From a candidate division TM6 bacterium GW2011_GWF2_38_10 (GTDB taxonomy: Bacteria; Babelota; Babeliae; Babelales; RVW-14), in NCBI GenBank assembly GCA_000992305.1, contig LBTY01000007.1, positions 28,620 to 92,619 of the forward strand: a stretch of 64,000 bases of DNA. Reading direction: 5' to 3'. Position numbers and translations under genes: made by a program. The notes below the pieces were generated by a model. That model was given only the letters and a program-made list of their open reading frames with translations. It was not told the origin of the DNA and did not search any database. Of this stretch, positions 7,758 through 31,176 are shown one piece after another. Within the stretch, counting starts at the first letter, position 1. Each line of letters opens with the position of its first letter.

Positions 7758-10577
7758 ATGAAGTACTTACGTCTATCGCCGCTTCTTCTTGCAACAACAC
7801 TCGCCTATACTCCTGTGCAGCTTTTTACTACCCCAGCGCCTACACCAATGACATATCAATTACCAACCCAAAGGCTCTTCCAAGCAGTACTTAATAAAGA
7901 TGCTCTAGCAATCGAAGATCTCTTGAAACAAGGAGCCTATATCAATGCCCAAAACGAAGATGGGGATCGCCCCATTGATATTGCCTATACCCAAGGAGAT
8001 TTTTATCTTGTTTCTCTTTTAAAAAACTATGGCGCCGATGTACAAAAAGAACGCATCGGGAAATTACCTCAAGAATTCAAAGCCCCACCGATATCTGAAA
8101 CTTTTTTTGAAAAATCTAAACTTAAACAAGAATGCATCGCAATACTTGAAGATACCCAAAAAGCATTTGATCTATTTAAACGAGGTAGAAAAACTCCTAA
8201 ACATTATAGCGATATGGATAATGAAGAAAAATTTTATCTCGATTTTGAACATGCAACAGTGCAAGAAAAATATCCGCTCGTTTATTTACTTTTGCGAAAG
8301 CAAGTTAATGCTTTGCTAGCCCATAAACCGATGAATAAATATATCAAACTTGGTATAATTTTCTCACCAACCGAAAAAAATCTCATCTACCATAATGCCT
8401 ATGCAGATACATTCTCTAATACTATACGTTTTGGCTGGGTATATCTTTATAATTACATAACCAATAATTACATTCCCTACACCATATGGAATACGCTTGC
8501 ACATGAGTGGCAACATCTGTATCAACTCGCCTACTCAACAGAAATAGAAATAACTGATGAAACACTCCCCATCGAAAAAGAAATAGATGCTGATTTTCTC
8601 GCGTCTAAAACATCTCTCTTACATATCGATGATACAGCTACATATGAAATCACAAAAGGGCATTTTATTACCCTTATTTATGTATATCTTTCATCAAAAA
8701 CAGCACACCATCCAACGTTACTTATAGAAGGATCAAATCATATTTTAAGGGCTATAACTGACCTGAATCCATATTTTCTGAATAATAACCTTAATTTTAT
8801 AAGAACCGCACTAAAAACCCTTATTGATAAAGCACATACAGATGCCCCTAAAAGACAATCTACTCGTGAATACTATCAATCCATTGTGCAATTCATACTT
8901 AACAACTATCACAAGGAAATTCAAAAACCATACATTCAAGAACAACAAGATTTTAAAAGCGATCACCCCTCTGACAAAGCTCGTAATGAAAACACCCTTA
9001 AAGTACGATGTCTTTATGAAATTTTACTTTTAAAAAAATACTATGGAACACAAGCAAGCGTCACCATATCTCCCCAAAACGCTCCCTTTTTACACACGCT
9101 TATAACTAAAGATCTTGCTATTGCTGCAATTGAAGATAAATCACAAAATCAACCCGCTACCGATTTACCCCAACAAGAAAATAGCACCCCACCACTAAAT
9201 CCTTATCATGATTTTACGTACACCATTCAACTCAGCGACTATAGCAATACCCCAATCTTAAATCCTTTTATTATTAAAAATAACGCTGTATTTGGTATAG
9301 TTTTACCTGAAAATTTTATCATTTTTGCGCTCTGCAACCCTCAACCTCATAAAGTTTTTTCCTCAACTATCATTGATGCTCGAAAAAAAACAAGTAGTCT
9401 CTCAAATGAAAGTAATGCATCTGATCTACCCAAAAAACAAATATACCCATTCAATAAAAACGCATTTACTGTTTTTGAACAACTCTACAACCAAAGCTTG
9501 TCGCTAACTTTACAATCCACAAATCCTTTTTTACATCACGAAAAAGCAATAATACTTTTTGCTCAAGTTGCTCACATTCTTCCAGAACTTGCATCACACC
9601 TTGTAGATGCTATAACAAAAGAAAAAATCGCAGCAGCCCTTGAATATATTACAATAACTATTTTTTCAATCCCCGAAGAAAATAATATAAACAACATTAG
9701 CCTCTTATCATCACGAAAAAAAAGCGAAGATATTGTCAATAAAGTTTCCCTTACACTTTTTGCTTTTTTTGCAGGTCTCGATAACTCAATTAAATTAACT
9801 ACTATAACTACAGAAATAAATAAAAAACTCCTTATAGCAGCAGATAATCTCCGCTTCAAAACTCTCATAGAAAAAATATTTTCAATTTTTTTTGGAACAC
9901 AGCAAATATCATTATTAGAAAAACTTATTGAATTTAAACTCAAAAAAACATTTTACAGCTATATAAAAAAAGGAGCCAATGTCAATACTCAAAACCATCA
10001 AGGCGATACGCCTTTACATCAAGCCATTAAAACTAATAAAAAACTATTTACACAACTACTATTAAAACTAAAAACTATAAACCCTGATATAGCAAATAAA
10101 GATGGCGAAATTCCATTACACATTGCCATTAAAAAAAAGACGGGCCAACCAATCATCGGTATGATTCTTGCAAAAACAACCAACATCAATGCCCAAAACA
10201 CCTATGGCAACACCCCCTTGCACATAGCCATAATTTTATCACAATTCGATATTATAGAACTTCTATTAAACCAAAATACAATAAATACTGATATAGCTAA
10301 TAAGGATGGCGAAACTCCATTACACATTGCAATAAAAAAAAGGATGGGCCAATCAATCATAGATATGATCCTTGCAAAAACAACCAACTTCAATATTCAA
10401 GACAATCAAGGAAACACTCCTTTATACAAAGCAATCGATGAAAAAAATATCCCAACAGTCCAACTATTACTGCAGCACAATGCTGATCCTTCAATTAAAA
10501 ATAATGCTGGAAAAACTCCCGCAAGTCGTGCTCTTGAAAAAGATATAGACCTAAATGAAATAAAGGAAGATCAATAG
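7758..10577 (+). CDS. ankyrin-repeat protein with a central HExxH (zincin-like) motif; candidate host-interaction effector
   Basis: 939 aa. There is an N-terminal ANK repeat (LLKQGAYINAQNEDGDRPIDIAY) and at least 5 C-terminal ANK repeats (GDTPLHQAI, GEIPLHIAI, GNTPLHIAI, GETPLHIAI, GNTPLYKAI, GKTPASRAL). HEWQH lies at nt 8502-8516 in the context LAHEWQHLYQLAY. A hydrophobic N-terminus is present. Confidence 0.85.
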   Translation: MKYLRLSPLLLATTLAYTPVQLFTTPAPTPMTYQLPTQRLFQAVLNKDALAIEDLLKQGAYINAQNEDGDRPIDIAYTQGDFYLVSLLKNYGADVQKERIGKLPQEFKAPPISETFFEKSKLKQECIAILEDTQKAFDLFKRGRKTPKHYSDMDNEEKFYLDFEHATVQEKYPLVYLLLRKQVNALLAHKPMNKYIKLGIIFSPTEKNLIYHNAYADTFSNTIRFGWVYLYNYITNNYIPYTIWNTLAHEWQHLYQLAYSTEIEITDETLPIEKEIDADFLASKTSLLHIDDTATYEITKGHFITLIYVYLSSKTAHHPTLLIEGSNHILRAITDLNPYFLNNNLNFIRTALKTLIDKAHTDAPKRQSTREYYQSIVQFILNNYHKEIQKPYIQEQQDFKSDHPSDKARNENTLKVRCLYEILLLKKYYGTQASVTISPQNAPFLHTLITKDLAIAAIEDKSQNQPATDLPQQENSTPPLNPYHDFTYTIQLSDYSNTPILNPFIIKNNAVFGIVLPENFIIFALCNPQPHKVFSSTIIDARKKTSSLSNESNASDLPKKQIYPFNKNAFTVFEQLYNQSLSLTLQSTNPFLHHEKAIILFAQVAHILPELASHLVDAITKEKIAAALEYITITIFSIPEENNINNISLLSSRKKSEDIVNKVSLTLFAFFAGLDNSIKLTTITTEINKKLLIAADNLRFKTLIEKIFSIFFGTQQISLLEKLIEFKLKKTFYSYIKKGANVNTQNHQGDTPLHQAIKTNKKLFTQLLLKLKTINPDIANKDGEIPLHIAIKKKTGQPIIGMILAKTTNINAQNTYGNTPLHIAIILSQFDIIELLLNQNTINTDIANKDGETPLHIAIKKRMGQSIIDMILAKTTNFNIQDNQGNTPLYKAIDEKNIPTVQLLLQHNADPSIKNNAGKTPASRALEKDIDLNEIKEDQ
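10086..10403 (+). repeat. intragenic tandem duplication, period 204 nt (two ANK repeats per unit)
   Basis: 10086-10199 and 10290-10403 align base for base with few substitutions (gatatagcaaataaagatggcgaaattccattacacattgcc... against gatatagctaataaggatggcgaaactccattacacattgca...). Confidence 0.7.
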
Positions 10578-18362: not shown

Positions 18363-18824
18363 ATGGCTAAACATATAGGGGTAAAGTTACCCGAAGATCT
18401 TATTGAATTGTTAAAAAAAGAAAAAACAGTTGCCATTCTTGCAACATTTTCTGAAAAGGGTGTACCAAATACCACGCCAATATCCTGCATTTATCCTAAG
18501 GGACAAGAAAGCATTTTGCTCAGCATTCATAAGGAACATAGCGGATATTTAAATATGGTCTGGCAAAAAAAAGTAATGCTGTGTATCATTGGTGAAGGAA
18601 ATATTGCATACAGTATTCTAGGCAGAGCTGGCGTTGTACGAGCACCATCCAATGTGCATCCGCTCATGAATGTCGTAAGAATTGATATCATCGACATAAA
18701 ATGTGACCGATCAATACTTGCCCGTGTAGATCAAGGCATTCAGTGGAGCTATACTTCTCCAGAAGCTGAAGAATTATTAACAAATATATTTAAAGAACTT
18801 AAAGATTTATCAAAAAATCTTTAA
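18363..18824 (+). CDS. pyridoxamine 5'-phosphate oxidase-like (split-barrel) family protein, tentative
   Basis: 153 aa. The pattern LPEDLIELLKKEKTVAILATFSEKGVPNTTPIS...ILGRAGVV resembles the PNPOx-like FMN-binding split barrel. This is a pattern-level call only. Confidence 0.45.
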   Translation: MAKHIGVKLPEDLIELLKKEKTVAILATFSEKGVPNTTPISCIYPKGQESILLSIHKEHSGYLNMVWQKKVMLCIIGEGNIAYSILGRAGVVRAPSNVHPLMNVVRIDIIDIKCDRSILARVDQGIQWSYTSPEAEELLTNIFKELKDLSKNL

Positions 18825-18882: not shown

Positions 18883-20595
18883 ATGAATGGCTCAACATTG
18901 TGGGACTTTAAAAAAACACTGCATACAATGCTTATAATTTCGCTGTGTGTACCATCCCTAGTGGGAATGCCACGCGCAAGCAAATCATCAACAAGCACAC
19001 TCTCAACGTCTATGCCAAGCGCAAAAGCAACTCCTCTAACAATCCCAACAACACCAAAGCAATCGCCGTTTACATCTATGCCCCAGATAAAACCTCTATC
19101 ATTGGCAAGCAACGCTTCACAAGCAGCCCCACTACAACTCCCCACTACCGCTCCTAAGCTTCAAACACCCAAACCAACCCTCCCTCTTACCACCGCTGTA
19201 CCACAACTTCAAACACTTTCCCCCACCCCTTCACAACCACTTGCAACTCAAGTAACAATGCCAATACAACCAAGCACGCCGCCTCAAGCAAAACAACCCC
19301 CAGTCCAACTCACATCACGTTCAATCCCGCAACTGCCACAAGCAACATCAGCACCACTTTCATTACCAACAGTTTCACTTCCACAAGAACCAAACGGTTC
19401 TCAAACAATCGCTCTTCCAGACGAAAAAATTGGCATCCAAGGTAATTGGATGAAAAAAAAAGATTGGCTCTTACGTTCTAACGAAGTATTTGATGCACTC
19501 CAAGCAAGTGTCAATAACCTTCAAACCGTTCGACAAGACTATCAAAAAAAATATCACGCTATAGATAAAGAATTTGACGCCTTTTATAAAAAAGCAAGTC
19601 TTGAACAAGGAAAAATACAAGAACTTTTTGCAGGGCTTGAACGATATCTTGAAAAAAAGAAAAAAGAAAAAGAAGATGAATATACACAAGAAAATCAAAC
19701 ACCAGAACAAGAAGAATTAGCCAACCGAGAATATCTTTTAAAAGTTGAATTGCTCAATGATGAAATCAAAAAAAATCGCGAAGAACTTGAACAACTCAAA
19801 CTTGATCTGCAATCCATTGAAGACTTAGATAAATCAATTATTGCACGACTTGAACGTTTTGATGAACAATTTGAAAAGGCTCATGATCTTTATGATCAAG
19901 CGGAACAAGATATTGAACAACTATGGGATATAATCGATGATTCTCTTGCCCGAGAAATTTATTACAAACTTAAAAACAATATCACCCTGCACATTGAAGC
20001 AATTACAGGATATTTGCAAGAAGATCTTGCAAAAGACCTTGACAGCGTTATAGAAACGGCACGTTCACAAATAAAAAAAACCGAAGAAGAAATAAAAGCA
20101 TTAGAAGAAAAAGGATTTATTGTTAAAGATAGATCTCGCCGTATTGAAGAAATAAAATTACAAGAAATACAACAACAAGAACAAGCCAAAAAAGAAGCTG
20201 AGCAAATTCCAACTAAAATTGAAACAATCGATCTTAAAAAAATAAAACGGAAACCAACACGCTGGTATGAAAAGGCCTACGATTGGTTTACGACCATGAT
20301 TTCAAAAATCTACGAATATTTTGGTATTGCATATCCCCAAAAGTCAAAAGATGAACAACTACAACAAGAATCGAAGATTAAAGTAACAATGCCGACCGCC
20401 ATTAACATGCCAACAACACAAGAATCTGAATCGCCCAAGCTACAAACGATAATGCCATCTAAAAGTACACCACCTTCGACCATTCCCTTAAATATCAATC
20501 CAACACCTATATCAAATACTTCAATGATGCCTCAATCTGAACTTCCTAACCCCAATCTATCCCCAGATAATCAAGCTCCTATGAGCATGGAATAA
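18883..20595 (+). CDS. hypothetical secreted protein: Pro/Thr/Ser-rich, then coiled coil, then amphipathic Trp-rich segment, then a Pro-rich tail
   Basis: 570 aa. Hydrophobic N-terminus MLIISLCVPSLVG, roughly 150 aa of P/T/S/Q low complexity, then a long heptad-like E/K/L/Q region, then RWYEKAYDWFTTMISKIYEYF. Confidence 0.6.
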   Translation: MNGSTLWDFKKTLHTMLIISLCVPSLVGMPRASKSSTSTLSTSMPSAKATPLTIPTTPKQSPFTSMPQIKPLSLASNASQAAPLQLPTTAPKLQTPKPTLPLTTAVPQLQTLSPTPSQPLATQVTMPIQPSTPPQAKQPPVQLTSRSIPQLPQATSAPLSLPTVSLPQEPNGSQTIALPDEKIGIQGNWMKKKDWLLRSNEVFDALQASVNNLQTVRQDYQKKYHAIDKEFDAFYKKASLEQGKIQELFAGLERYLEKKKKEKEDEYTQENQTPEQEELANREYLLKVELLNDEIKKNREELEQLKLDLQSIEDLDKSIIARLERFDEQFEKAHDLYDQAEQDIEQLWDIIDDSLAREIYYKLKNNITLHIEAITGYLQEDLAKDLDSVIETARSQIKKTEEEIKALEEKGFIVKDRSRRIEEIKLQEIQQQEQAKKEAEQIPTKIETIDLKKIKRKPTRWYEKAYDWFTTMISKIYEYFGIAYPQKSKDEQLQQESKIKVTMPTAINMPTTQESESPKLQTIMPSKSTPPSTIPLNINPTPISNTSMMPQSELPNPNLSPDNQAPMSME

Positions 20596-20613
20596 TAACA
20601 CTAATAATCACGT

Positions 20614-20652
20614 AAGGGAAAGCTCTTTAAAAAGGGCTTTCCCTTGTTTTTT
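20614..20652 (+). terminator. rho-independent terminator
   Basis: 10-bp stem, aagggaaagc (20614-20623) with gctttccctt (20636-20645), then gtttttt. Confidence 0.7.
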
Positions 20653-20739
20653 ATACGACTTATTGACAGAAATAAAAAGAATATTTTTATACTGCCTATA
20701 GGTTTTATGCACATATTCTAAACTTTCTAGGGAGTTGTA

Positions 20740-21381
20740 ATGAAAAAAAAATTACTCATACTTGGTGCCCTAACAGGGTGCATCTATTGGCATAACCCCA
20801 TACTTAACGCCATGATGGATGATGAAATGGCAACCGAAGAATCCGAAGAAACAATGGAAGCCCCCGCCGAAGAATCTCCAGCGGAAGAATCAATGGACAT
20901 GGAAGCGTCCCCTGCAACACCTGAAGCACCCGACACCTCTATGGGAATGAATGAGATGCCTTCAGCACCATCATCGAGTGAACCTTCCATGGGTATGGAA
21001 ACCCCGCCAGCACTGCCACAAGAGACATTACCCCTACCAACAACACCTCCCGCTGGCTCACCGCTCTCACCGTCAACTCTAACAACGCCCACACCTCAAG
21101 AAGCATCAACCCAACTTAAATGGCCAGATACCATAGAACTTACTGAAGAAACAAAACCAATAAGCACCACCAGTAATCCGACAATATTAAAGCATTTTCA
21201 AGAAGCAAAAAAAATAAAAAAGGAAACAAAAAAAACAATAAAAAAACTTGCCGATCATGAAAAAACACTCTTTGATACCTATAACGAAATGAATACGGCT
21301 ATTGACAACTTCTTACAAGAATCATCGTTTATCCAAGGAAAAATAACGAAACAAATTTCAACCGTAACCAGTGAAGAATAA
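20740..21381 (+). CDS. hypothetical lipoprotein, acidic/Pro-rich N-half, helical C-half
   Basis: 213 aa. Lipobox LGALTG|C, an E/P/M/S-rich region, and a C-terminal TAIDNFLQESSFIQGKITK that resembles AIDKEFDAFYKKASLEQGKIQE of the 18883 protein. Confidence 0.6.
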   Translation: MKKKLLILGALTGCIYWHNPILNAMMDDEMATEESEETMEAPAEESPAEESMDMEASPATPEAPDTSMGMNEMPSAPSSSEPSMGMETPPALPQETLPLPTTPPAGSPLSPSTLTTPTPQEASTQLKWPDTIELTEETKPISTTSNPTILKHFQEAKKIKKETKKTIKKLADHEKTLFDTYNEMNTAIDNFLQESSFIQGKITKQISTVTSEE

Positions 21382-21393
21382 AAAAGGAGTATT

Positions 21394-22809
21394 ATGAAAA
21401 AAATAATAAATAATGCACTACTCATAACCCTTGGATCAACATTTTACATAACACATATGGGAGCAATGCCCATGGTCGATTCTACAGTCCCTTCGCCAAT
21501 CCCAGCAAATCCCACCCCAATCATAACGCCAACACCCACTCCCGCACCAACCATACCCACCCCTGTTTCCCCCACTCCACCAGCAGCAACTCCATCAGTT
21601 CTCCCTGCAGCCGGAACACCAATGCCATCTCCTCAAGTTGCTCCATCCGCAGGATCAACCGCACCGGTAGCCGCAATAGATTCCACACAGGCACCAACTC
21701 AAGAAATTGAACAACTTAATAAAATTGTTGAAGAAATAAAAACCATAAAACAAACACTCCAACAAGAATTATCAAAAACGCAAGATGAAATTCAAAATGC
21801 TCGAACAAACTATGCACAAATGCGCGAAAAAAGTAAATCCATACTTCAAAGTTCACAAGAATCTGAAAGTCAAGAATTGCTCAAAAGCGTTGCCGACCTA
21901 CAAGAAACAATCTCAACCATAAATACAAATGTTACATCAACAATGAAAAAATCAATCGATGATGCCCAAGAAAAACTCCAAAGTCTTATTAAACAAGGAA
22001 CTGAATTAACACAAAAAATTCAAGAAAAAGGACATCAATACCACGTCAGTCAATTAAAAATTAAAGAACGTGAAGAACAAATTAAGCGTGAAGAAGCACT
22101 AGCCAAAAAACGAGCACTTGAAGAACAAAGTATTTGGAATCGTATCACATCATGGATAGCAAAAGCAGTTAAACGCGTTCAAAAATTTATTCTCGGATTT
22201 AAAAAAATAATTGCACAACCGGAAGAGCAACAACCACAAAAAAATACCACTCCAGAGTCGGTAGAAAAAAAAAAATCTAGCGACGCAACACCCACTCCAA
22301 ACTCAGCCGACAACCCCACAACCAGCACAACCTCAAACGCAGAACCCACAACTTCCACAAGCGAACCCAAAACAGAATATGCAACTTCCACTCAACTAGA
22401 AACAGTACTTCAACAAACAAATACTGCGCTTTTAGAACTTGAAAAAACACAAAAACAGACCGCCAAACAACTTGTAAAACTCGATGAACAAACAACACTT
22501 TTCGGCAACATGGAAGACGCTCCGGAGCTTTCAGAAAACATTGCATCAACAGAATCAGCTCCACGCTGGAAACGCATGATTTTATTTATCACCAGTGAAT
22601 TAATTGATGCCGGCGAATACGCAGTCCGTGGAGTTATCGCACTTGGAAAAAAAATATATGATTACCTTTTTTCAGGAATCGTACAGCGCGTTGTTGTTGA
22701 TGTTCACGAAAAACTACAAGAAAAAGATGCACTCCAAGAACAACAAAAAAAAGAACAAGAATTACCCGAATATCAACCATCACCAGAAGCAACAAAAAAC
22801 GAAGAATAA
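21394..22809 (+). CDS. hypothetical secreted Pro-rich/coiled-coil protein
   Basis: 471 aa. Signal peptide, then a P/T/A-rich stretch, coiled coil, and IWNRITSWIAKAVKRVQKFILGF (compare the 18883 protein). It starts 12 nt after the previous gene. Confidence 0.6.
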   Translation: MKKIINNALLITLGSTFYITHMGAMPMVDSTVPSPIPANPTPIITPTPTPAPTIPTPVSPTPPAATPSVLPAAGTPMPSPQVAPSAGSTAPVAAIDSTQAPTQEIEQLNKIVEEIKTIKQTLQQELSKTQDEIQNARTNYAQMREKSKSILQSSQESESQELLKSVADLQETISTINTNVTSTMKKSIDDAQEKLQSLIKQGTELTQKIQEKGHQYHVSQLKIKEREEQIKREEALAKKRALEEQSIWNRITSWIAKAVKRVQKFILGFKKIIAQPEEQQPQKNTTPESVEKKKSSDATPTPNSADNPTTSTTSNAEPTTSTSEPKTEYATSTQLETVLQQTNTALLELEKTQKQTAKQLVKLDEQTTLFGNMEDAPELSENIASTESAPRWKRMILFITSELIDAGEYAVRGVIALGKKIYDYLFSGIVQRVVVDVHEKLQEKDALQEQQKKEQELPEYQPSPEATKNEE

Positions 22810-22832
22810 AAACAAGTAAAACCACAAAAAAA

Positions 22833-25577
22833 ATGATGAGTATGTCCAAAATGGTAAAAAAATATAGTGTACTAATCAGCATTGGTCTACTCATCATACT
22901 CCTTTTTCTCATCAACCACCGCAGCCCTATAATCACTATCGCAACCATCACCCAACAGGATACATCAACAATTCACCACTATGTTCTATCCAATGGGCTC
23001 ACCCTCCTTATTCATCACAAACCTCAAGCACCTCATACCTTTCTCCAAATAACCTATAATGTTGGCTCAGCAAAAGAATCGCATGCACCCAAAGGCATTG
23101 CTCATATCATTGAACATATGCTTTTTAAAGGAACAACTACCTACGCAGAGCGCGATATTCCTGCTATTGCACGTATGTTTGGTGCAAAAATCAATGCGGC
23201 AACCTCATTCGATTTCACCTGGTACTATGTTGATACAAGTAATGATCACTGGAAACCTTTTATCGATATTTTTGCCGATTGTATGTGTAATGCACGCTTT
23301 GCCAAACAACACCTTGCCTCAGAAATTAAAACAATTATTCGAGAAGTAAAAACAGCAAAAAATACAATCCATAAAATACTCCGTGAACAAATGTTTGAAT
23401 ATGCATATCCTCCTAATCATCCATATCATTTTTCGATTGGAGGCTATTATGAGGATCTTAATCGCATAACGCCACAGGATTTACATACGTTTTATAAAAA
23501 GCATTATCGCCCCGACAATGCAGTACTTTTTATAACAGGAGGATGCGACCCTGAAAGCGTAAAAACCTATGTACAAAAAGTATTCGGTCCAATTAAACAA
23601 CCACAAGAACCAAAACCTTCGTCGTTCAATAGCACATCTTGGAGTAACCAACTCGGCAAGAACGTAACGCTCTATAAAAAAGTAGCACACCCGCGCATTG
23701 CATTTTTTTGGACCATTCCCGGGCTTAAAGATGAAGATGAAATTGTATCATCAGATCTAGCCTTTCTGATTGGTAACACCATGCATGGAAGTTTGTATCA
23801 CGAAGTAATAACCAATCAAAAACAAGCCATATCACTTTCTGTTGCTGCAACGAAACATTTGTATGGAGGATTATTTATCATCACCTGCACACCAACAAAA
23901 AATGAATACACCGCACTGGCTCAAACAATAACAACCCATTTACAAACATGTGCCAAGCAAGGTTTTTCATCAGACGCCATAAAAACCATGACCGCCCATA
24001 AACAACGTATTTTTTATCAAGACTATCTTCAGCCAGAAACAATGACGCGCAACTGGAGTAAATCATTTTTAGCAACACATAATCCCTTTATCTTTTTCCA
24101 ACGACCACACCACTACAACCTTTCAGACCCCAAAAAACTCCAAAGCTTTATTGCGACCTATTTGCAACCAGAATTCATGCACCAACTAACAATTCTGCCT
24201 CTTAATAAAAAAAGAAAAAGAAGCCTTGAAAAAATCACGGAAAAAAAGGAACAGCGTGATGCACAACTCTTACAGTCTAACCCACGCTCCACACCGCTTG
24301 ATACGCTCAAAAGAGCGCTAACACTTACCCCACCGCCACTCATCATTCCCTCATATCCACAACCAAATACAACCGTTACCTACCCTCATGGGCTCACCGT
24401 AATCATGGCTCAACGTCATGACACCCCCTTGGTTACACTACAATTCGGACTTAAAAACGCATGTTTCTTTGAAACATCGTACCAAAGCGTATTCCTTGAA
24501 ACCTTTATGAAAATCGTATGTGAGCAGATCAAGCATCATCCAAACTTACCACGCTCACTCACCATAACACACAATACAACAAGTATTACCTGTTCATGTT
24601 TGGCATCAGATGCTGATGCCACTATCGATCTTATTGCTTCACTTTTTAGTCTTGAAACACTCACGAACGCCGAACCGGAATACAAATCGAGTCGGCGTGC
24701 CATATATAACTTGTATAAAAAAAGAAAAAACCGACATAAAGAAACACTCTACCGAACAATCACGCAACACCTGTATCCGCAAACATGTTTTGATTGGTCA
24801 TTTAACGATGCACTTGCAACACTAAAAACAATAACTGCCACTGAACTTTTCAACTCACTTACACCCCTTATCCACGCTCAAAATTTGATTTGTGTTATTG
24901 TTGGAGACATTGATTGCACAAAACTTGAATCACACCTACAAAAAACCTTCGGTACTTTTGCAACCAACACACCATTGCCGGTACCGAATACACCGCTCAC
25001 ACCGAGTCATCATAAACCTCATATTGAAATCAAAACACAAAGCCCCATGATTACAACCGAGCTCGCAGCACCCCACACCATTTCTCTATTTTCTTATGAA
25101 TATGCCACCTGCAACATCCTTGAACATGTTTGTTTTCATGGATGGGGATCTCGTCTTTTTTCTCTACGAGAATCATACGGACTTTTTTATTCCAACTTTG
25201 GAGCATTTGCACAGAATGCAGAAATCGGCCATGGATTTCATTATTGGGGAGCAATAACAACACACGACGCGTTTGCACAAACAACTCAAAAGCTTACAGA
25301 ATCAATAACAAAACTTTTTACAACAGGAATAACTACCCAAGAATGCGCCGCCGCTAAACAACTCATTATAAAACAATGGAATAATGCCTTTGCATCGCCC
25401 CAAACACAAGTTCGCATACTCTTTAATCTCTATGCACATAATCACAGCATTCAGGATCTTAATGAATATCTTAGAACCATAGAAACATGTTCTTATAATG
25501 ATGTTAGCATAAGCACACACCGCCTTATTAACCCGCATAATTTTTTTCAGGCCACGATAGGAAATCAAAACAACTAA
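22833..25577 (+). CDS. M16 (pitrilysin/insulinase) family zinc peptidase, double-length, N-terminal membrane anchor
   Basis: 914 aa. Inverted zincin motif HIIEHMLFKGT (HxxEH) and a TM segment YSVLISIGLLIILLFLI. The length fits two M16 active/inactive domain pairs. It starts 23 nt after the previous gene. Confidence 0.85.
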   Translation: MMSMSKMVKKYSVLISIGLLIILLFLINHRSPIITIATITQQDTSTIHHYVLSNGLTLLIHHKPQAPHTFLQITYNVGSAKESHAPKGIAHIIEHMLFKGTTTYAERDIPAIARMFGAKINAATSFDFTWYYVDTSNDHWKPFIDIFADCMCNARFAKQHLASEIKTIIREVKTAKNTIHKILREQMFEYAYPPNHPYHFSIGGYYEDLNRITPQDLHTFYKKHYRPDNAVLFITGGCDPESVKTYVQKVFGPIKQPQEPKPSSFNSTSWSNQLGKNVTLYKKVAHPRIAFFWTIPGLKDEDEIVSSDLAFLIGNTMHGSLYHEVITNQKQAISLSVAATKHLYGGLFIITCTPTKNEYTALAQTITTHLQTCAKQGFSSDAIKTMTAHKQRIFYQDYLQPETMTRNWSKSFLATHNPFIFFQRPHHYNLSDPKKLQSFIATYLQPEFMHQLTILPLNKKRKRSLEKITEKKEQRDAQLLQSNPRSTPLDTLKRALTLTPPPLIIPSYPQPNTTVTYPHGLTVIMAQRHDTPLVTLQFGLKNACFFETSYQSVFLETFMKIVCEQIKHHPNLPRSLTITHNTTSITCSCLASDADATIDLIASLFSLETLTNAEPEYKSSRRAIYNLYKKRKNRHKETLYRTITQHLYPQTCFDWSFNDALATLKTITATELFNSLTPLIHAQNLICVIVGDIDCTKLESHLQKTFGTFATNTPLPVPNTPLTPSHHKPHIEIKTQSPMITTELAAPHTISLFSYEYATCNILEHVCFHGWGSRLFSLRESYGLFYSNFGAFAQNAEIGHGFHYWGAITTHDAFAQTTQKLTESITKLFTTGITTQECAAAKQLIIKQWNNAFASPQTQVRILFNLYAHNHSIQDLNEYLRTIETCSYNDVSISTHRLINPHNFFQATIGNQNN

Positions 25578-29020: not shown

Positions 29021-29251
29021 AGTAGTTTTTTCTCACGACAAAAAAATTGAACTTAACCGGGGTAAGTCTAACGTGATTTTTACAAAAGTACAACGACGAT
29101 AATTTTTGAACATTCATCCGCCTAACAAATTATAAAATAAACAAAAAGGTTGTGTGATCTCTCAATATAGTTATACTGCTTCGTACCCGCTCATATAAAA
29201 AAAGTATTGGTTTGTAGAACACGTGGTGTTTGTTTAAGAGGGGAACAACGT

Positions 29252-31176
29252 ATGAATACACCCAAAATACATGTGTTATTTCAACGCATAAAAGACCTTG
29301 GCTTTTCTGGCTTATTAACCTGGGGATCAACTAAGTATTTGCGTTATGCCATAAAAACTCGTTATAAAAAAAAGGCACTCGCCAAAAGAGCAAACCATCA
29401 ATGGTTGACCATTGCAAAGCGACACAAACGAGATGAATCGTTTGCCCAGTTTTTTGCCCTTCTAAAAACAAATCGTGTGTTTGAAAAAATGCTTAACTCA
29501 AATACGTTCTGCACGCATATACCCACCAGCTATCTTAAAGACCCTAATCTTTTTGGACAAGCGGACGCGTATGTCAACAACACCTTTTCTGTATTAGGAT
29601 CCCCAAACGTTAAATTCAATGAAAAAATCAATTGGCATGTTGATATCAAACTCCCTAAAGAAAAATGGGGAACCGAATACTGGAACCAACCACCACTTCG
29701 CTTTTATCAAGAAATCAAGGCTCAACAAATCTCTGAACCCACTTCAACCTATAACCCCGACATCAAGGTTCCATGGGAACTCTCTCGCATGCAACACCTG
29801 TTTGTACTCGGCTTGGCTTATAAACGCGCTATGGAAATTGAAGACTTTGTACTAGCAAGCCGCTACAGCAGTACATTTGTAACACACATCGACCATTGGA
29901 TTACCTACAATCCATTTCTCCTTGGTGTTAATTGGGTTTGTCCAATGGAAGTTGCAATTAGAGCAATCAACCTTATAGTTTCTCTCCAATTTTTTAAAGA
30001 GTGCACAAGTATTCCCGTTGCATTTTGGGAAAAACTCGTTTGTTCCCTCTATGACCACGCCTATTACCTAGAATACAACCCAGAAACTTCAGACCGTCCA
30101 AATAACCACTACATTTTAAAATCATTCATGAATATAACGAAAAGCAGACATCAACACTAGCCGAACTCTGGCGACAAATGAACAAGCAAATCAACCCAGA
30201 CGGCAGCAGTTACGAGGGATCAACAAACTACCACAAACTCGTAACCGAAATGTTTGAGCACGTCATTCTACTCTGTACCATTCAAGAAATACCCGTACCT
30301 CAAAAAAATATCAACCTTTTGCACATGATGAAAACATTTTTGCAGGATTGCACCGACATCGGCGGCAATTTAACGCAAATTGGCGATAATGATAGTGGTA
30401 AATGCATTACAGGCTATACTATTACACCAAGCCGATCTCCAAAATTATTGCAATATCGCTGGGCCGGTATCAGTATTATTAACACGCACGGGTGGCACTG
30501 CACCTTTAGACATCCCACCTTTTTTTCGTATCAACCAAGTGGTCATTTTCATCATGATGAGCTTGCCTTAACACTGTCACTCGACGGCAGACCACTGCTT
30601 GTCGATTCTGGAACCTTTTTATACACGAGCAATATATCACAACGCAATGCATTTAAAAGTGCGCATGCACACACAACCTATTACATTCCAGAACTCGAGC
30701 CAAGAAGCTCTATAGATCTCTTTCAGACAAAACGCTCGCACACAAATCATGACGCGATGATAGAAATTAAAGATAAGAACATTGTCATTCAAGATTACCA
30801 CAAAAAATATGAATCTTACGGAATTAAGGCGCACAGACGATTACTTTTTGACACCTACAAAGAAATATTTGAAATTCAAGACTGGCTGGAGCCATCAACA
30901 CAAAAAACCCAAATTAAATCAACTCATGAACAACATAACCTTGTATGGAATATGCATTGGGCCCCAGACATTGAACTTATTCAAAACGACGATCACGCAT
31001 GGATAATTACAAAAAAAACCAAACCTATAGCCCATCTAACCACAACCCTTTCGTTTGACTGCCAGGAAACACATATCAGCCCAGCATATGGAGCATTGGA
31101 AGCAACAAAGACCTTATCAGCGCAACAACCTGCAATACCAACAAAAGTCTATTGTACAAAAATTAGACGGTTTTAA
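29252..31176 (+). pseudogene. heparinase II/III-like (polysaccharide lyase family) gene split by a frameshift/deletion
   Basis: Two ORFs in different frames (29207/29252-30160 and 30178-31176). The first carries the N-terminal domain pattern (WELSRMQHLFVLGLAY...WITYNP...VNWVCPMEVAIRAINL...PNNHY). The second carries NPDGSSYEGSTNYH and GHFHHDELALTLSLDGRPLLVDSGTFLY...SAHAH. The NNH-to-DG spacing looks shortened. Confidence 0.7.

Follow-up and report, generated by a model that had tools for sequence, protein, structure and literature searches.

An apparently Babelota-specific family of predicted exported helical proteins and its split tandem paralogue beside an M16 peptidase gene

Do four consecutive reading frames of an uncultured TM6 bacterium, three for Pro-rich secreted proteins and the last for an M16 peptidase, constitute one envelope, surface or host-contact module with a dedicated processing protease? 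Such a module was proposed by the first-pass annotation of the window, that is, the whole stretch of 64,000 nucleotides analysed here, which comes from candidate division TM6 bacterium GW2011_GWF2_38_10 (Candidatus Babelota, alias Dependentiae). TM6 bacteria, obligate parasites of protists, are widespread, and their cell biology has hardly been described. The three reading frames of 570, 213 and 471 aa are designated below as genes A, B and C, respectively; the features of the block are as follows.

18363..18824, plus strand: PNPOx-like gene, 153 aa, invariably next to A on its upstream side wherever a related locus includes upstream DNA
18883..20595, plus strand: gene A, reading frame of 570 aa, core family member
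20612..20647, plus strand: intrinsic-terminator-like hairpin with a 16-bp stem (6 GC pairs) followed by TTTTTT, kept in L002
20740..21381, plus strand: gene B, reading frame of 213 aa, Shine-Dalgarno sequence AGGGAG; this longer reading frame is kept in L002
21394..22809, plus strand: gene C, reading frame of 471 aa, Shine-Dalgarno sequence AAAGGAG
22833..25577, plus strand: predicted PqqL-type M16 zinc peptidase of 914 aa, its two halves fused, assigned by Pfam domains and the HxxEH motif, with an N-terminal hydrophobic anchor or signal

The four reading frames were found exactly as annotated, as were the gaps of 12 nt (B to C) and 23 nt (C to the M16 gene), which follow from their coordinates, and the terminator after A, a strong hairpin of this kind. 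A promoter-like TTGACA...TATACT lies upstream of B, and both this site and the hairpin are kept in a relative with 77% identity. The longer start of B is favoured because AGGGAG precedes it; no obvious Shine-Dalgarno sequence was found before the M16 start. As for the operon proposed from 20740 to 25577, the gaps are short and no terminator-like site was found on the plus strand from C to the M16 start, so that B, C and the M16 gene may be co-transcribed in the window genome.

The layout claimed to be common to the three proteins, a hydrophobic signal-like N-terminal segment followed by a low-complexity spacer, was also recovered, and each of A, B and C carries a predicted export signal. In A, the signal-like segment (residues ~1-28) precedes a Pro/Thr/Ser/Gln spacer (~29-172), a helical core (173-480) and a Pro-rich tail (481-570). 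In B, the signal peptide is followed by an acidic Pro-/Met-rich spacer (~25-124) and a single helical module (~125-213), while C possesses its own signal peptide, a Pro-rich spacer (25-99), an N-terminal module (100-268), a Thr/Pro linker and a second helical module (~331-445). Proline makes up 21, 19 and 29% of the spacers of A, B and C, respectively, and the spacer of B additionally contains 17% Glu and 11% Met. The signal peptide of B ends in LTGC (LAGC in L002), matching the lipobox pattern [LVI][ASTVI][GAS]C, hence B is a predicted lipoprotein in these two loci; the lipobox is absent from most other, more distant B orthologues and is therefore not a family feature.

Apart from this general layout, the proteins could have been alike purely in composition, i.e., by low-complexity spacers and generic coiled coils, with no shared ancestry. 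Indeed, pairwise BLASTP among A, B and C gave marginal values only (E 0.008, 0.6 and 0.003), and reversed coiled-coil profiles can reach an hhalign E of about 1e-6. Against this, the profile-profile comparison, which had been recommended as a check, revealed significant similarity well above the reversed-alignment controls: B matched A with 97% probability (E 1e-10, score 81.5, reversed controls about 24), and C matched A with 98.8% probability (E 1e-16, score 132.7 over 171 columns, reversed controls 53-58). The C-terminal module of B and the first half of C were placed on separate parts of A.

19468..19650, plus strand: B-like module of A (residues 196-256), part of predicted helix 1, containing ID.E.D.FY......QGK, located by hhalign of A with B
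19771..20313, plus strand: C-like module of A (residues 297-477), covering predicted helices 2 to 4 and the W helix, located by hhalign of A with C

Both pairs of recurring motifs noticed in the first reading lie inside these significant alignments, and specific motifs align in register, but in the first pair the Asp register has to be shifted, since Asp189 of B stands opposite Asp232 of A and not opposite the 'AID' proposed; the QGK part aligns as proposed. Profiles built from orthologues to delimit the family recovered all three proteins on the window (A with profile Acore at 2e-135, B with Bdom at 2e-38, C with CN at 1e-66 and CC at 8e-47), including the module of B (ID.F.Q....F..GK) and the N-terminal module of C with the W helix. 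Together with natural fused reading frames that hold both modules in the order of A (see below), the profile alignments and their reversed controls refute the compositional reading, which we regard as scarcely credible. These comparisons show that A, B and C are, as judged from their predicted sequences, homologous and paralogous members of one family, the helical module of B being homologous to helix 1 of A and the N-terminal module of C (100-268, W helix IWNRITSWIAKAVKRVQKFILGF included) to A 297-477. The second helical module of C displayed no significant similarity either to A or to the first module of C; it occurs also in one of the fused forms.

The description of these genes as orphans does not hold for A: 19 homologues share 37-100% identity with it, 32 residues are invariant among 19 members, and its profile collected 783 clusters (50% identity) at E<=1e-3, of which 157 reached E<=1e-30. 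That no known family could be recognised is nevertheless borne out: searches of Pfam, NCBIfam and PDB sequences, as well as Foldseek searches of the PDB, returned only sub-threshold coiled-coil noise. In 125 of 148 family members with complete N-termini, the sequence opens with a hydrophobic segment and continues into a spacer; typical A-x-A-like cleavage contexts come after this segment in many members, and the spacer, Pro-rich or acidic depending on the member, varies from about 10 to over 250 residues. The family appears to be specific to Candidatus Babelota, and its sequences point to an undescribed and widespread group of exported, rod-shaped helical proteins, to which a function can be ascribed only by inference. 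The W helix of A is a basic, aromatic and amphipathic helix at residues 460-480 (RWYEKAYDWFTTMISKIYEYF). The amphipathic helices are the segments of highest hydrophobic moment both in A (most amphipathic 18-residue stretch 452-469, muH 0.67) and in C (residues 249-266, muH 0.75), and distant members of the family terminate right at an aromatic hydrophobic helix.

Examination of the genomic context placed A directly downstream of HemW-like and PNPOx-like genes in every related locus with upstream DNA, and the gene order SerRS, DUF58, DUF4381, HemW, PNPOx, A is kept in every locus long enough to show it, the PNPOx-like gene being 73-85% identical across the compared loci. Downstream of A, the relatives possess either B and C as two genes whose products both start with a signal-like segment (at least 15 loci; B orthologues likewise occur in at least 15 loci), or one fused reading frame (L025, L026, L028, L029, L035, L038 and L042), in which the B module is followed, about 20 residues on, by the C N-terminal module. 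Since either the split pair or the fused frame takes this position, B and C are to be considered as halves of a split tandem paralogue of A; such arrangements show, on the level of predicted gene products, a relationship to an A-like paralogue by fission or fusion. In two loci of one lineage (L006, L007) A stands alone, therefore the paralogue is dispensable or located elsewhere in those genomes. In a rough tree, the fused and split states interleave. The first-pass annotation had not seen B and C as two halves of one A-like paralogue.

The 914-aa gene can be assigned to peptidase family M16 by its motif and domains. The predicted HxxEH motif was confirmed as a single HIIEH at residues 91-95 (window 23103-23117), and the protein matched PF00675 (97.6 bits, cut-off 22.3) and, in two stretches, PF05193 (153.4 bits, cut-off 23). 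In possessing one PF00675 and two PF05193 matches, two halves in about 900 aa, an N-terminal export or anchor segment and the HxxEH zinc motif in the N-terminal half, it resembles the M16B peptidases of PqqL type (Escherichia coli PqqL, 6ofs; the Sphingomonas pair, 3amj; Pseudomonas, 4nnz), although its similarity to the solved structures is modest (E 1e-15 to 1e-32) and confined to the N-terminal half. This likeness concerns the 914-aa gene alone, which has no conserved link with A, B or C.

M16 enzymes cleave unstructured peptides, and A, B and C contain long disordered segments. B, C and perhaps A might accordingly be substrates of the adjoining membrane-anchored M16 peptidase within a single envelope or host-contact module, as had been suggested; only 23 nt separate C from the M16 gene, which lies on the same strand, no terminator-like site intervenes, and the genes are arranged alike in L002, a close relative. 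However, among 27 loci in which the state of the gene or genes downstream was scored, C is immediately followed by M16 in just two, the window and L002, which share 77-83% protein identity; in 13 other loci the next gene codes for a phosphoglucomutase and in one for a C11 peptidase, and in one lineage (L009, L021, L022) an M16 homologue is situated about 8 kb further on, behind unrelated genes. The lack of an obvious Shine-Dalgarno sequence at the M16 start also speaks against this proposal. As M16 is adjacent only in these two loci and phosphoglucomutase in 13, a dedicated role of M16 in processing is unsupported, and we hold the substrate reading to be very improbable. Linkage of A, B and C to M16 is not conserved: the orthologues in relatives are unlinked to it, which the first-pass annotation itself had named as refuting its proposal, and an attractive idea is thereby removed. 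It is with the HemW-like and PNPOx-like genes on its upstream side, rather than with M16, that A keeps a conserved partnership. It should be mentioned that conserved synteny in these genomes need not signal function and may be neutral.

An AlphaFold2 model of the A core (pLDDT 74, pTM 0.55) contained helices at positions 8-97, 102-175, 181-237, 245-268 and 289-307 of the core, of which helix 1 corresponds to B and helices 2 to 5 to C. The lengths of the helices and the short loops between them suggest packing as a three-helix bundle. In the family plan proposed here, a Sec signal at the N-terminus leads into a disordered, low-complexity spacer that differs among members in length and composition; an elongated bundle would follow, made of three long helices and a shorter fourth one, and then the basic, aromatic amphipathic helix. 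A is the conserved core copy, fixed below the HemW-like and PNPOx-like genes and having its own terminator; the tandem paralogue right after it is a single gene in some lineages and a split one in the window lineage and many others. In the split copy, B carries the helix-1 module, and C, helices 2 to 4 with the amphipathic helix; C has gained its own signal peptide and spacer, in addition to its C-terminal second helical module. After presumed export of all three proteins by Sec, we infer that B and C come together again in an extracytoplasmic, A-like rod, that the rods attach to a membrane surface via their amphipathic helices (the candidates being the cell surface and the periplasmic side of either membrane, inner or outer), and that, in these obligately intracellular parasites, they play a structural or scaffolding part in the envelope. 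The M16 peptidase would be a general envelope protease of PqqL type, put beside C by a lineage-specific rearrangement. To this joint explanation, i.e., membrane-associating helical rods of Babelota formed by A and by the split paralogue B/C as an envelope scaffold, with M16 as a recent neighbour only, we give evenly balanced credence. Should the signal peptides be cleaved, the N-terminal spacers would have nothing to tether, and this explanation gives them no role. Its extension to a Babelota-specific extracytoplasmic rod or lattice of A and its split paralogue that binds membranes by means of the aromatic amphipathic helices and is essential for envelope architecture or for contact with, or escape from, the host vacuole has a slim chance of being correct; if true, it would represent a new class of bacterial exported membrane scaffold, of which the natural split-gene version shows how the rod is assembled.

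Alternatively, the proteins may be secreted, host-directed helical factors, which are released into the phagosome or host cell and bind, remodel or permeabilise host membranes, by analogy with BAR-like scaffolds or multi-component alpha-pore-forming toxins of the ClyA/Hbl/Nhe type. The members of the ClyA family are encoded by adjacent genes and are paralogous secreted elongated helical bundles with membrane-active amphipathic segments. A, B and C share with them (Hbl, Nhe, YaxAB/XaxAB, AhlABC) the adjacency of genes for paralogous exported long helical proteins and the amphipathic segments, but differ in lacking the hydrophobic tongue or head, no hydrophobic hairpin being present between the long helices, and in occupying a conserved housekeeping synteny. 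Weak Foldseek matches include F-BAR, arfaptin and ClyA, yet they are not significant (E >= 0.07, TM <= 0.3; for ClyA E 0.5, TM 0.16), and Pfam Bacillus_HBL was hit in one of six B orthologues only, at E 0.019. In favour of host-directed secretion, the hosts of the phylum are protists, a very large proportion of its proteins bear signal peptides, 44% in Chromulinavorax (PMC6561590), and its members have conserved a type II secretion system (PMC4776705). Nevertheless, wide conservation, a fixed place among housekeeping genes and 32 invariant residues, as observed for A, would be unusual for effectors or toxins, and this alternative is considered to be unlikely.

Another possibility is that the N-terminal segments are uncleaved signal anchors, so that the proteins are tethered to the inner membrane and span the periplasm like TonB, TolA or LpoB, with the Pro-rich spacer reaching through the periplasm so that the helical domain could work at the outer membrane or wall. 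In TonB and LpoB, a hydrophobic N-terminus is followed by a Pro-rich spacer and a folded domain. The same order of parts is seen in A, B and C, which thereby resemble TonB, RcsF and, if lipidated, LpoB, and B bears a canonical lipobox in the window lineage. Unlike those proteins, they contain no homologous domain (no TonB_C or TolA domain was detected with Pfam and NCBIfam), many of their signal peptides look cleavable, the lipobox is not conserved, and the wide variation of the spacer in length and composition speaks against its bridging a constant distance. We regard the anchoring alternative as improbable. Among solved structures, the lowest-rmsd Foldseek matches of the A core model were three chains of the Borrelia burgdorferi PFam12 outer surface protein BBH37 (8s2f, 8s2p; target-normalised TM 0.42-0.51, rmsd 6-8 Å over 211-222 columns), likewise an exported elongated all-helical bundle and from a host-dependent bacterium. 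With E 0.23-0.43 and 8-13% identity, the match falls short of significance and implies no sequence relationship; BBH37 differs in being a lipoprotein of about 185 residues and in lacking both a long spacer and a C-terminal amphipathic helix.

Returning to the proposed envelope rods, their functional significance is unproven, but the family as such is newly defined and large (783 clusters), with no counterpart found in Pfam or the PDB, a fixed genomic position and a fission/fusion relationship. It offers a concrete target for localisation and cryo-electron tomography in the few cultured Babelota, and the split pair predicts that B and C together would reconstitute the fold of A.

Two misleading public annotations can be corrected as well. 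B is named 'Collagen-binding adhesin', while neither B nor five of its orthologues gave a collagen-binding or Cna-B-type Pfam match. Membership of the SMC-like coiled-coil ATPases was considered too, but TIGR02169 scored 14.9 bits versus a cut-off of 729 and there is no ATPase head. The public name of A is 'Ribonuclease Y'; KH and HD matches in Pfam and NCBIfam were absent from A and its 19 homologues, and the name probably came from the combination of an anchor with a coiled coil.

The first-pass annotation described three consecutive genes, here A, B and C, as encoding related exported proteins, possibly processed by a dedicated M16 protease encoded next to them. The product of A shows 100% identity to a protein of candidate division TM6 bacterium GW2011_GWF2_38_10, which NCBI taxonomy assigns to Candidatus Babelota (synonym Dependentiae). 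The four open reading frames were borne out at the coordinates claimed:

18883-20595 (+), gene A, 570 aa
20740-21381 (+), gene B, 213 aa
21394-22809 (+), gene C, 471 aa
22833-25577 (+), gene of an M16 peptidase, 914 aa

The intergenic distances reported for B-C (12 nt) and C-M16 (23 nt) agree with these ORF coordinates, and the terminator proposed after A corresponds to a hairpin with a 16-bp stem followed by a T run (20612-20647). Both this hairpin and a promoter-like site 5' of B (TTGACA...TATACT) are kept in a 77%-identical relative. Ahead of the B start (20740) stands the sequence AGGGAG and ahead of C AAAGGAG, while no obvious Shine-Dalgarno sequence was found in the DNA upstream of the M16 start. 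Translated from 20740, B begins with a signal peptide ending in a lipobox, LTGC; its public annotation starts 24 codons downstream, so that both signal peptide and lipobox are lost.

The low-complexity spacers of the three proteins contain 19-29% Pro, that of B additionally 17% Glu and 11% Met. In this Met-rich B spacer (20812-21111) the motifs SMGM and MGME are repeated, and the B spacer of a related locus, L010 (11557-12567 of that locus), comprises five tandem copies of approximately 18 residues each (EAEAAPAPDMGMPEEKPV). The mature part starts with 'MP' in many close relatives. This 'MP', which follows the signal peptide, and a C-terminal 'GMPxx' were considered as sorting signals and dropped because, though conserved-looking in close relatives, they are lineage-limited family-wide (22/125).

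Pairwise BLASTP comparisons among A, B and C gave marginal values (E of 0.008, 0.6 and 0.003), and word-indexed homologue searches with B and C returned the close relative as the sole match. Homologues of A were gathered, B and C orthologues were recovered by their position in the loci encoding those homologues and by purpose-built HMMs, separate alignments were made for each family (A1, A2 and A3 for A, B and C, respectively), and the profiles were then compared. The A and B profiles matched with 97% probability (E 1e-10; A 196-256 on B 153-212), and those of A and C with 98.8% probability (E 1e-16; 171 columns, A 297-477 on C 100-267), the latter alignment including a basic aromatic amphipathic helix. 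Between B and C the alignment was limited to the signal peptides. Since coiled coils raise profile-profile scores, the comparisons were rerun with reversed alignments. For B the control score was approximately 24 and the true score 81.5; for C the controls gave 53-58 and the true alignment 132.7. These controls, together with the fused ORFs considered below, exclude a purely compositional likeness. Thus the mutual relatedness proposed in the first-pass annotation held in profile comparison (A-B at E 1e-10, A-C at E 1e-16), and both of its recurring motif pairs fall inside the significant A-B and A-C alignments: A, B and C constitute one paralogous exported family. A further duplication, in which the second half of C would repeat its first half or A, was not significant (13-15% probability).

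Genomic contexts were inspected for seven A homologues and 34 metagenomic loci, scanned with purpose-built HMMs (A core, B module and two for C) and searched for the proteins encoded around A. A 153-aa PNPOx-like gene lies directly 5' of A wherever upstream DNA is present, and the block SerRS, DUF58, DUF4381, HemW-like, PNPOx-like, A occurs in nearly all sufficiently long loci. The linkage of A to the HemW-like and PNPOx-like genes is therefore conserved. Downstream of A the loci differ as follows.

State of the paralogue downstream of A in the window and in related loci
Separate B and C: window, L002, L004, L008, L009, L010, L012, L013, L015, L017, L019, L023, L024, L027, L031, plus partial cases
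Single ORF, C N-terminal module about 20 residues behind the B module: L025, L026, L028, L029, L035, L038, L042
Single fused ORF, weaker cases: L034, L036, L037, L040
No paralogue: L006, L007

These separate and single-ORF states show that B and C arose by fission of a tandem paralogue of A or, put the other way round, that the single gene is B fused to C. A is the conserved core copy, and the second copy is either split or fused. In a rough tree the two states are interleaved, and either may be the ancestral one. The split-form C has a signal peptide and spacer of its own and ends in another helical module, the profile of which matches most, not all, split C genes and one fused form (L028).

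Within the upstream block, the PNPOx-like protein (18363-18824, +) shows 73-85% identity over its full length across 16 loci compared, in each of them at least equal to that of seryl-tRNA synthetase (63-82%); the A core shows 19-52%. Its match to Pfam PNPOx_N (30.6 bits) is barely above the threshold of 28.1.

The A core (residues 173-490) was modelled with AlphaFold2 from a 19-sequence alignment (pLDDT 74, pTM 0.55). The model contains helices at 8-97, 102-175, 181-237, 245-268 and 289-307, and the short loops between them suggest an antiparallel bundle of three long and two shorter helices. B corresponds to helix 1 of this model, and helices 2 to 5 have their counterpart in the first half of C. 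The aromatic helices are the most amphipathic segments of A and C (muH 0.67 and 0.75, respectively), and distant A-family members terminate exactly at such a helix. A Foldseek search of the model against PDB gave no match below E 0.07; the lowest-rmsd match, likewise not below this value, was the Borrelia PFam12 surface protein BBH37.

The 914-aa protein carries one PF00675 and two PF05193 domains, with a single HxxEH motif, as had been noted (HIIEH, residues 91-95), and its closest solved relatives are M16B enzymes, the fused PqqL among them. A search with the M16 protein across genome contigs matched solely an unrelated Sphingobacteriales M16. As the gene following the paralogue, M16 was found only in the window and in the close relative L002; phosphoglucomutase occupies this position in 13 loci, and one locus has a C11 peptidase there. 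L009, L021 and L022 do encode an M16 homologue, but about 8 kb farther downstream. Linkage of M16 to A, B and C is hence not conserved, and while the three genes stand as a related exported set, the neighbourhood does not support a protease dedicated to them. As phosphoglucomutase follows the paralogue in most other lineages, a rearrangement breakpoint probably lies immediately downstream of C. The 3' end of the M16 gene overlaps the convergent dnaE (DNA polymerase III alpha, - strand) by 4 nt (25574-25577).

Searching with the A profile retrieved 783 clusters (50% identity) at E<=1e-3 and 157 at E<=1e-30. A hydrophobic N-terminal segment is present in 125 of the 148 N-complete members, followed by a Pro-rich or acidic spacer of about 10 to more than 250 residues. 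Organism names, where present, are TM6 or Babeliales. Searches of Pfam, NCBIfam and PDB with single sequences and profiles gave just scattered sub-threshold coiled-coil matches, and nothing on the family was found in the literature on Dependentiae/Babeliales (proteome, coiled coil, signal peptide). The family is new, sizeable and apparently phylum-restricted, of a broadly familiar kind, i.e., exported proteins with a disordered spacer preceding a helical rod. No support was found for the source names RNase Y, SbcCD ATPase and rubrerythrin attached to A-family members; in the window, the public names 'Ribonuclease Y' (18883-20595) and 'Collagen-binding adhesin' (20740-21381) are without domain support.

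In the favoured reading, A, B and C would be exported by Sec with cleavage of their signal peptides, B and C presumably reassembling into an A-like rod, and the rods may attach to a membrane via their amphipathic helices and play a structural role in the envelope. Alternatively, the same proteins might be host-directed membrane-active factors, a reading that fits the parasitic lifestyle and very large predicted secretome of the phylum (PMC6561590; PMC4776705), or inner-membrane-anchored proteins spanning the periplasm.

Proteins with eukaryote-like domains are encoded close to the conserved block: a 939-aa ankyrin-repeat protein in the window (7758-10577, +), and RING/U-box proteins just 5' of SerRS in L004 (4253-5353), L007 (4249-5355) and L008 (2119-3201). 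Both are consistent with the host-manipulating lifestyle of the phylum. Elsewhere in the window, a heparinase II/III-like protein appears to be divided between two adjacent ORFs 17 nt apart (29207-30160 and 30178-31176, +), one carrying the N-terminal domain PF16889 and the other the C-terminal PF07940; the gene could be truly split, frameshifted or a pseudogene. Over the whole window (1-64000), GC skew of the + strand is negative in all 2-kb bins (-0.05 to -0.33), whatever the gene orientation, and AT skew is positive in all bins but one, a strong strand compositional bias.
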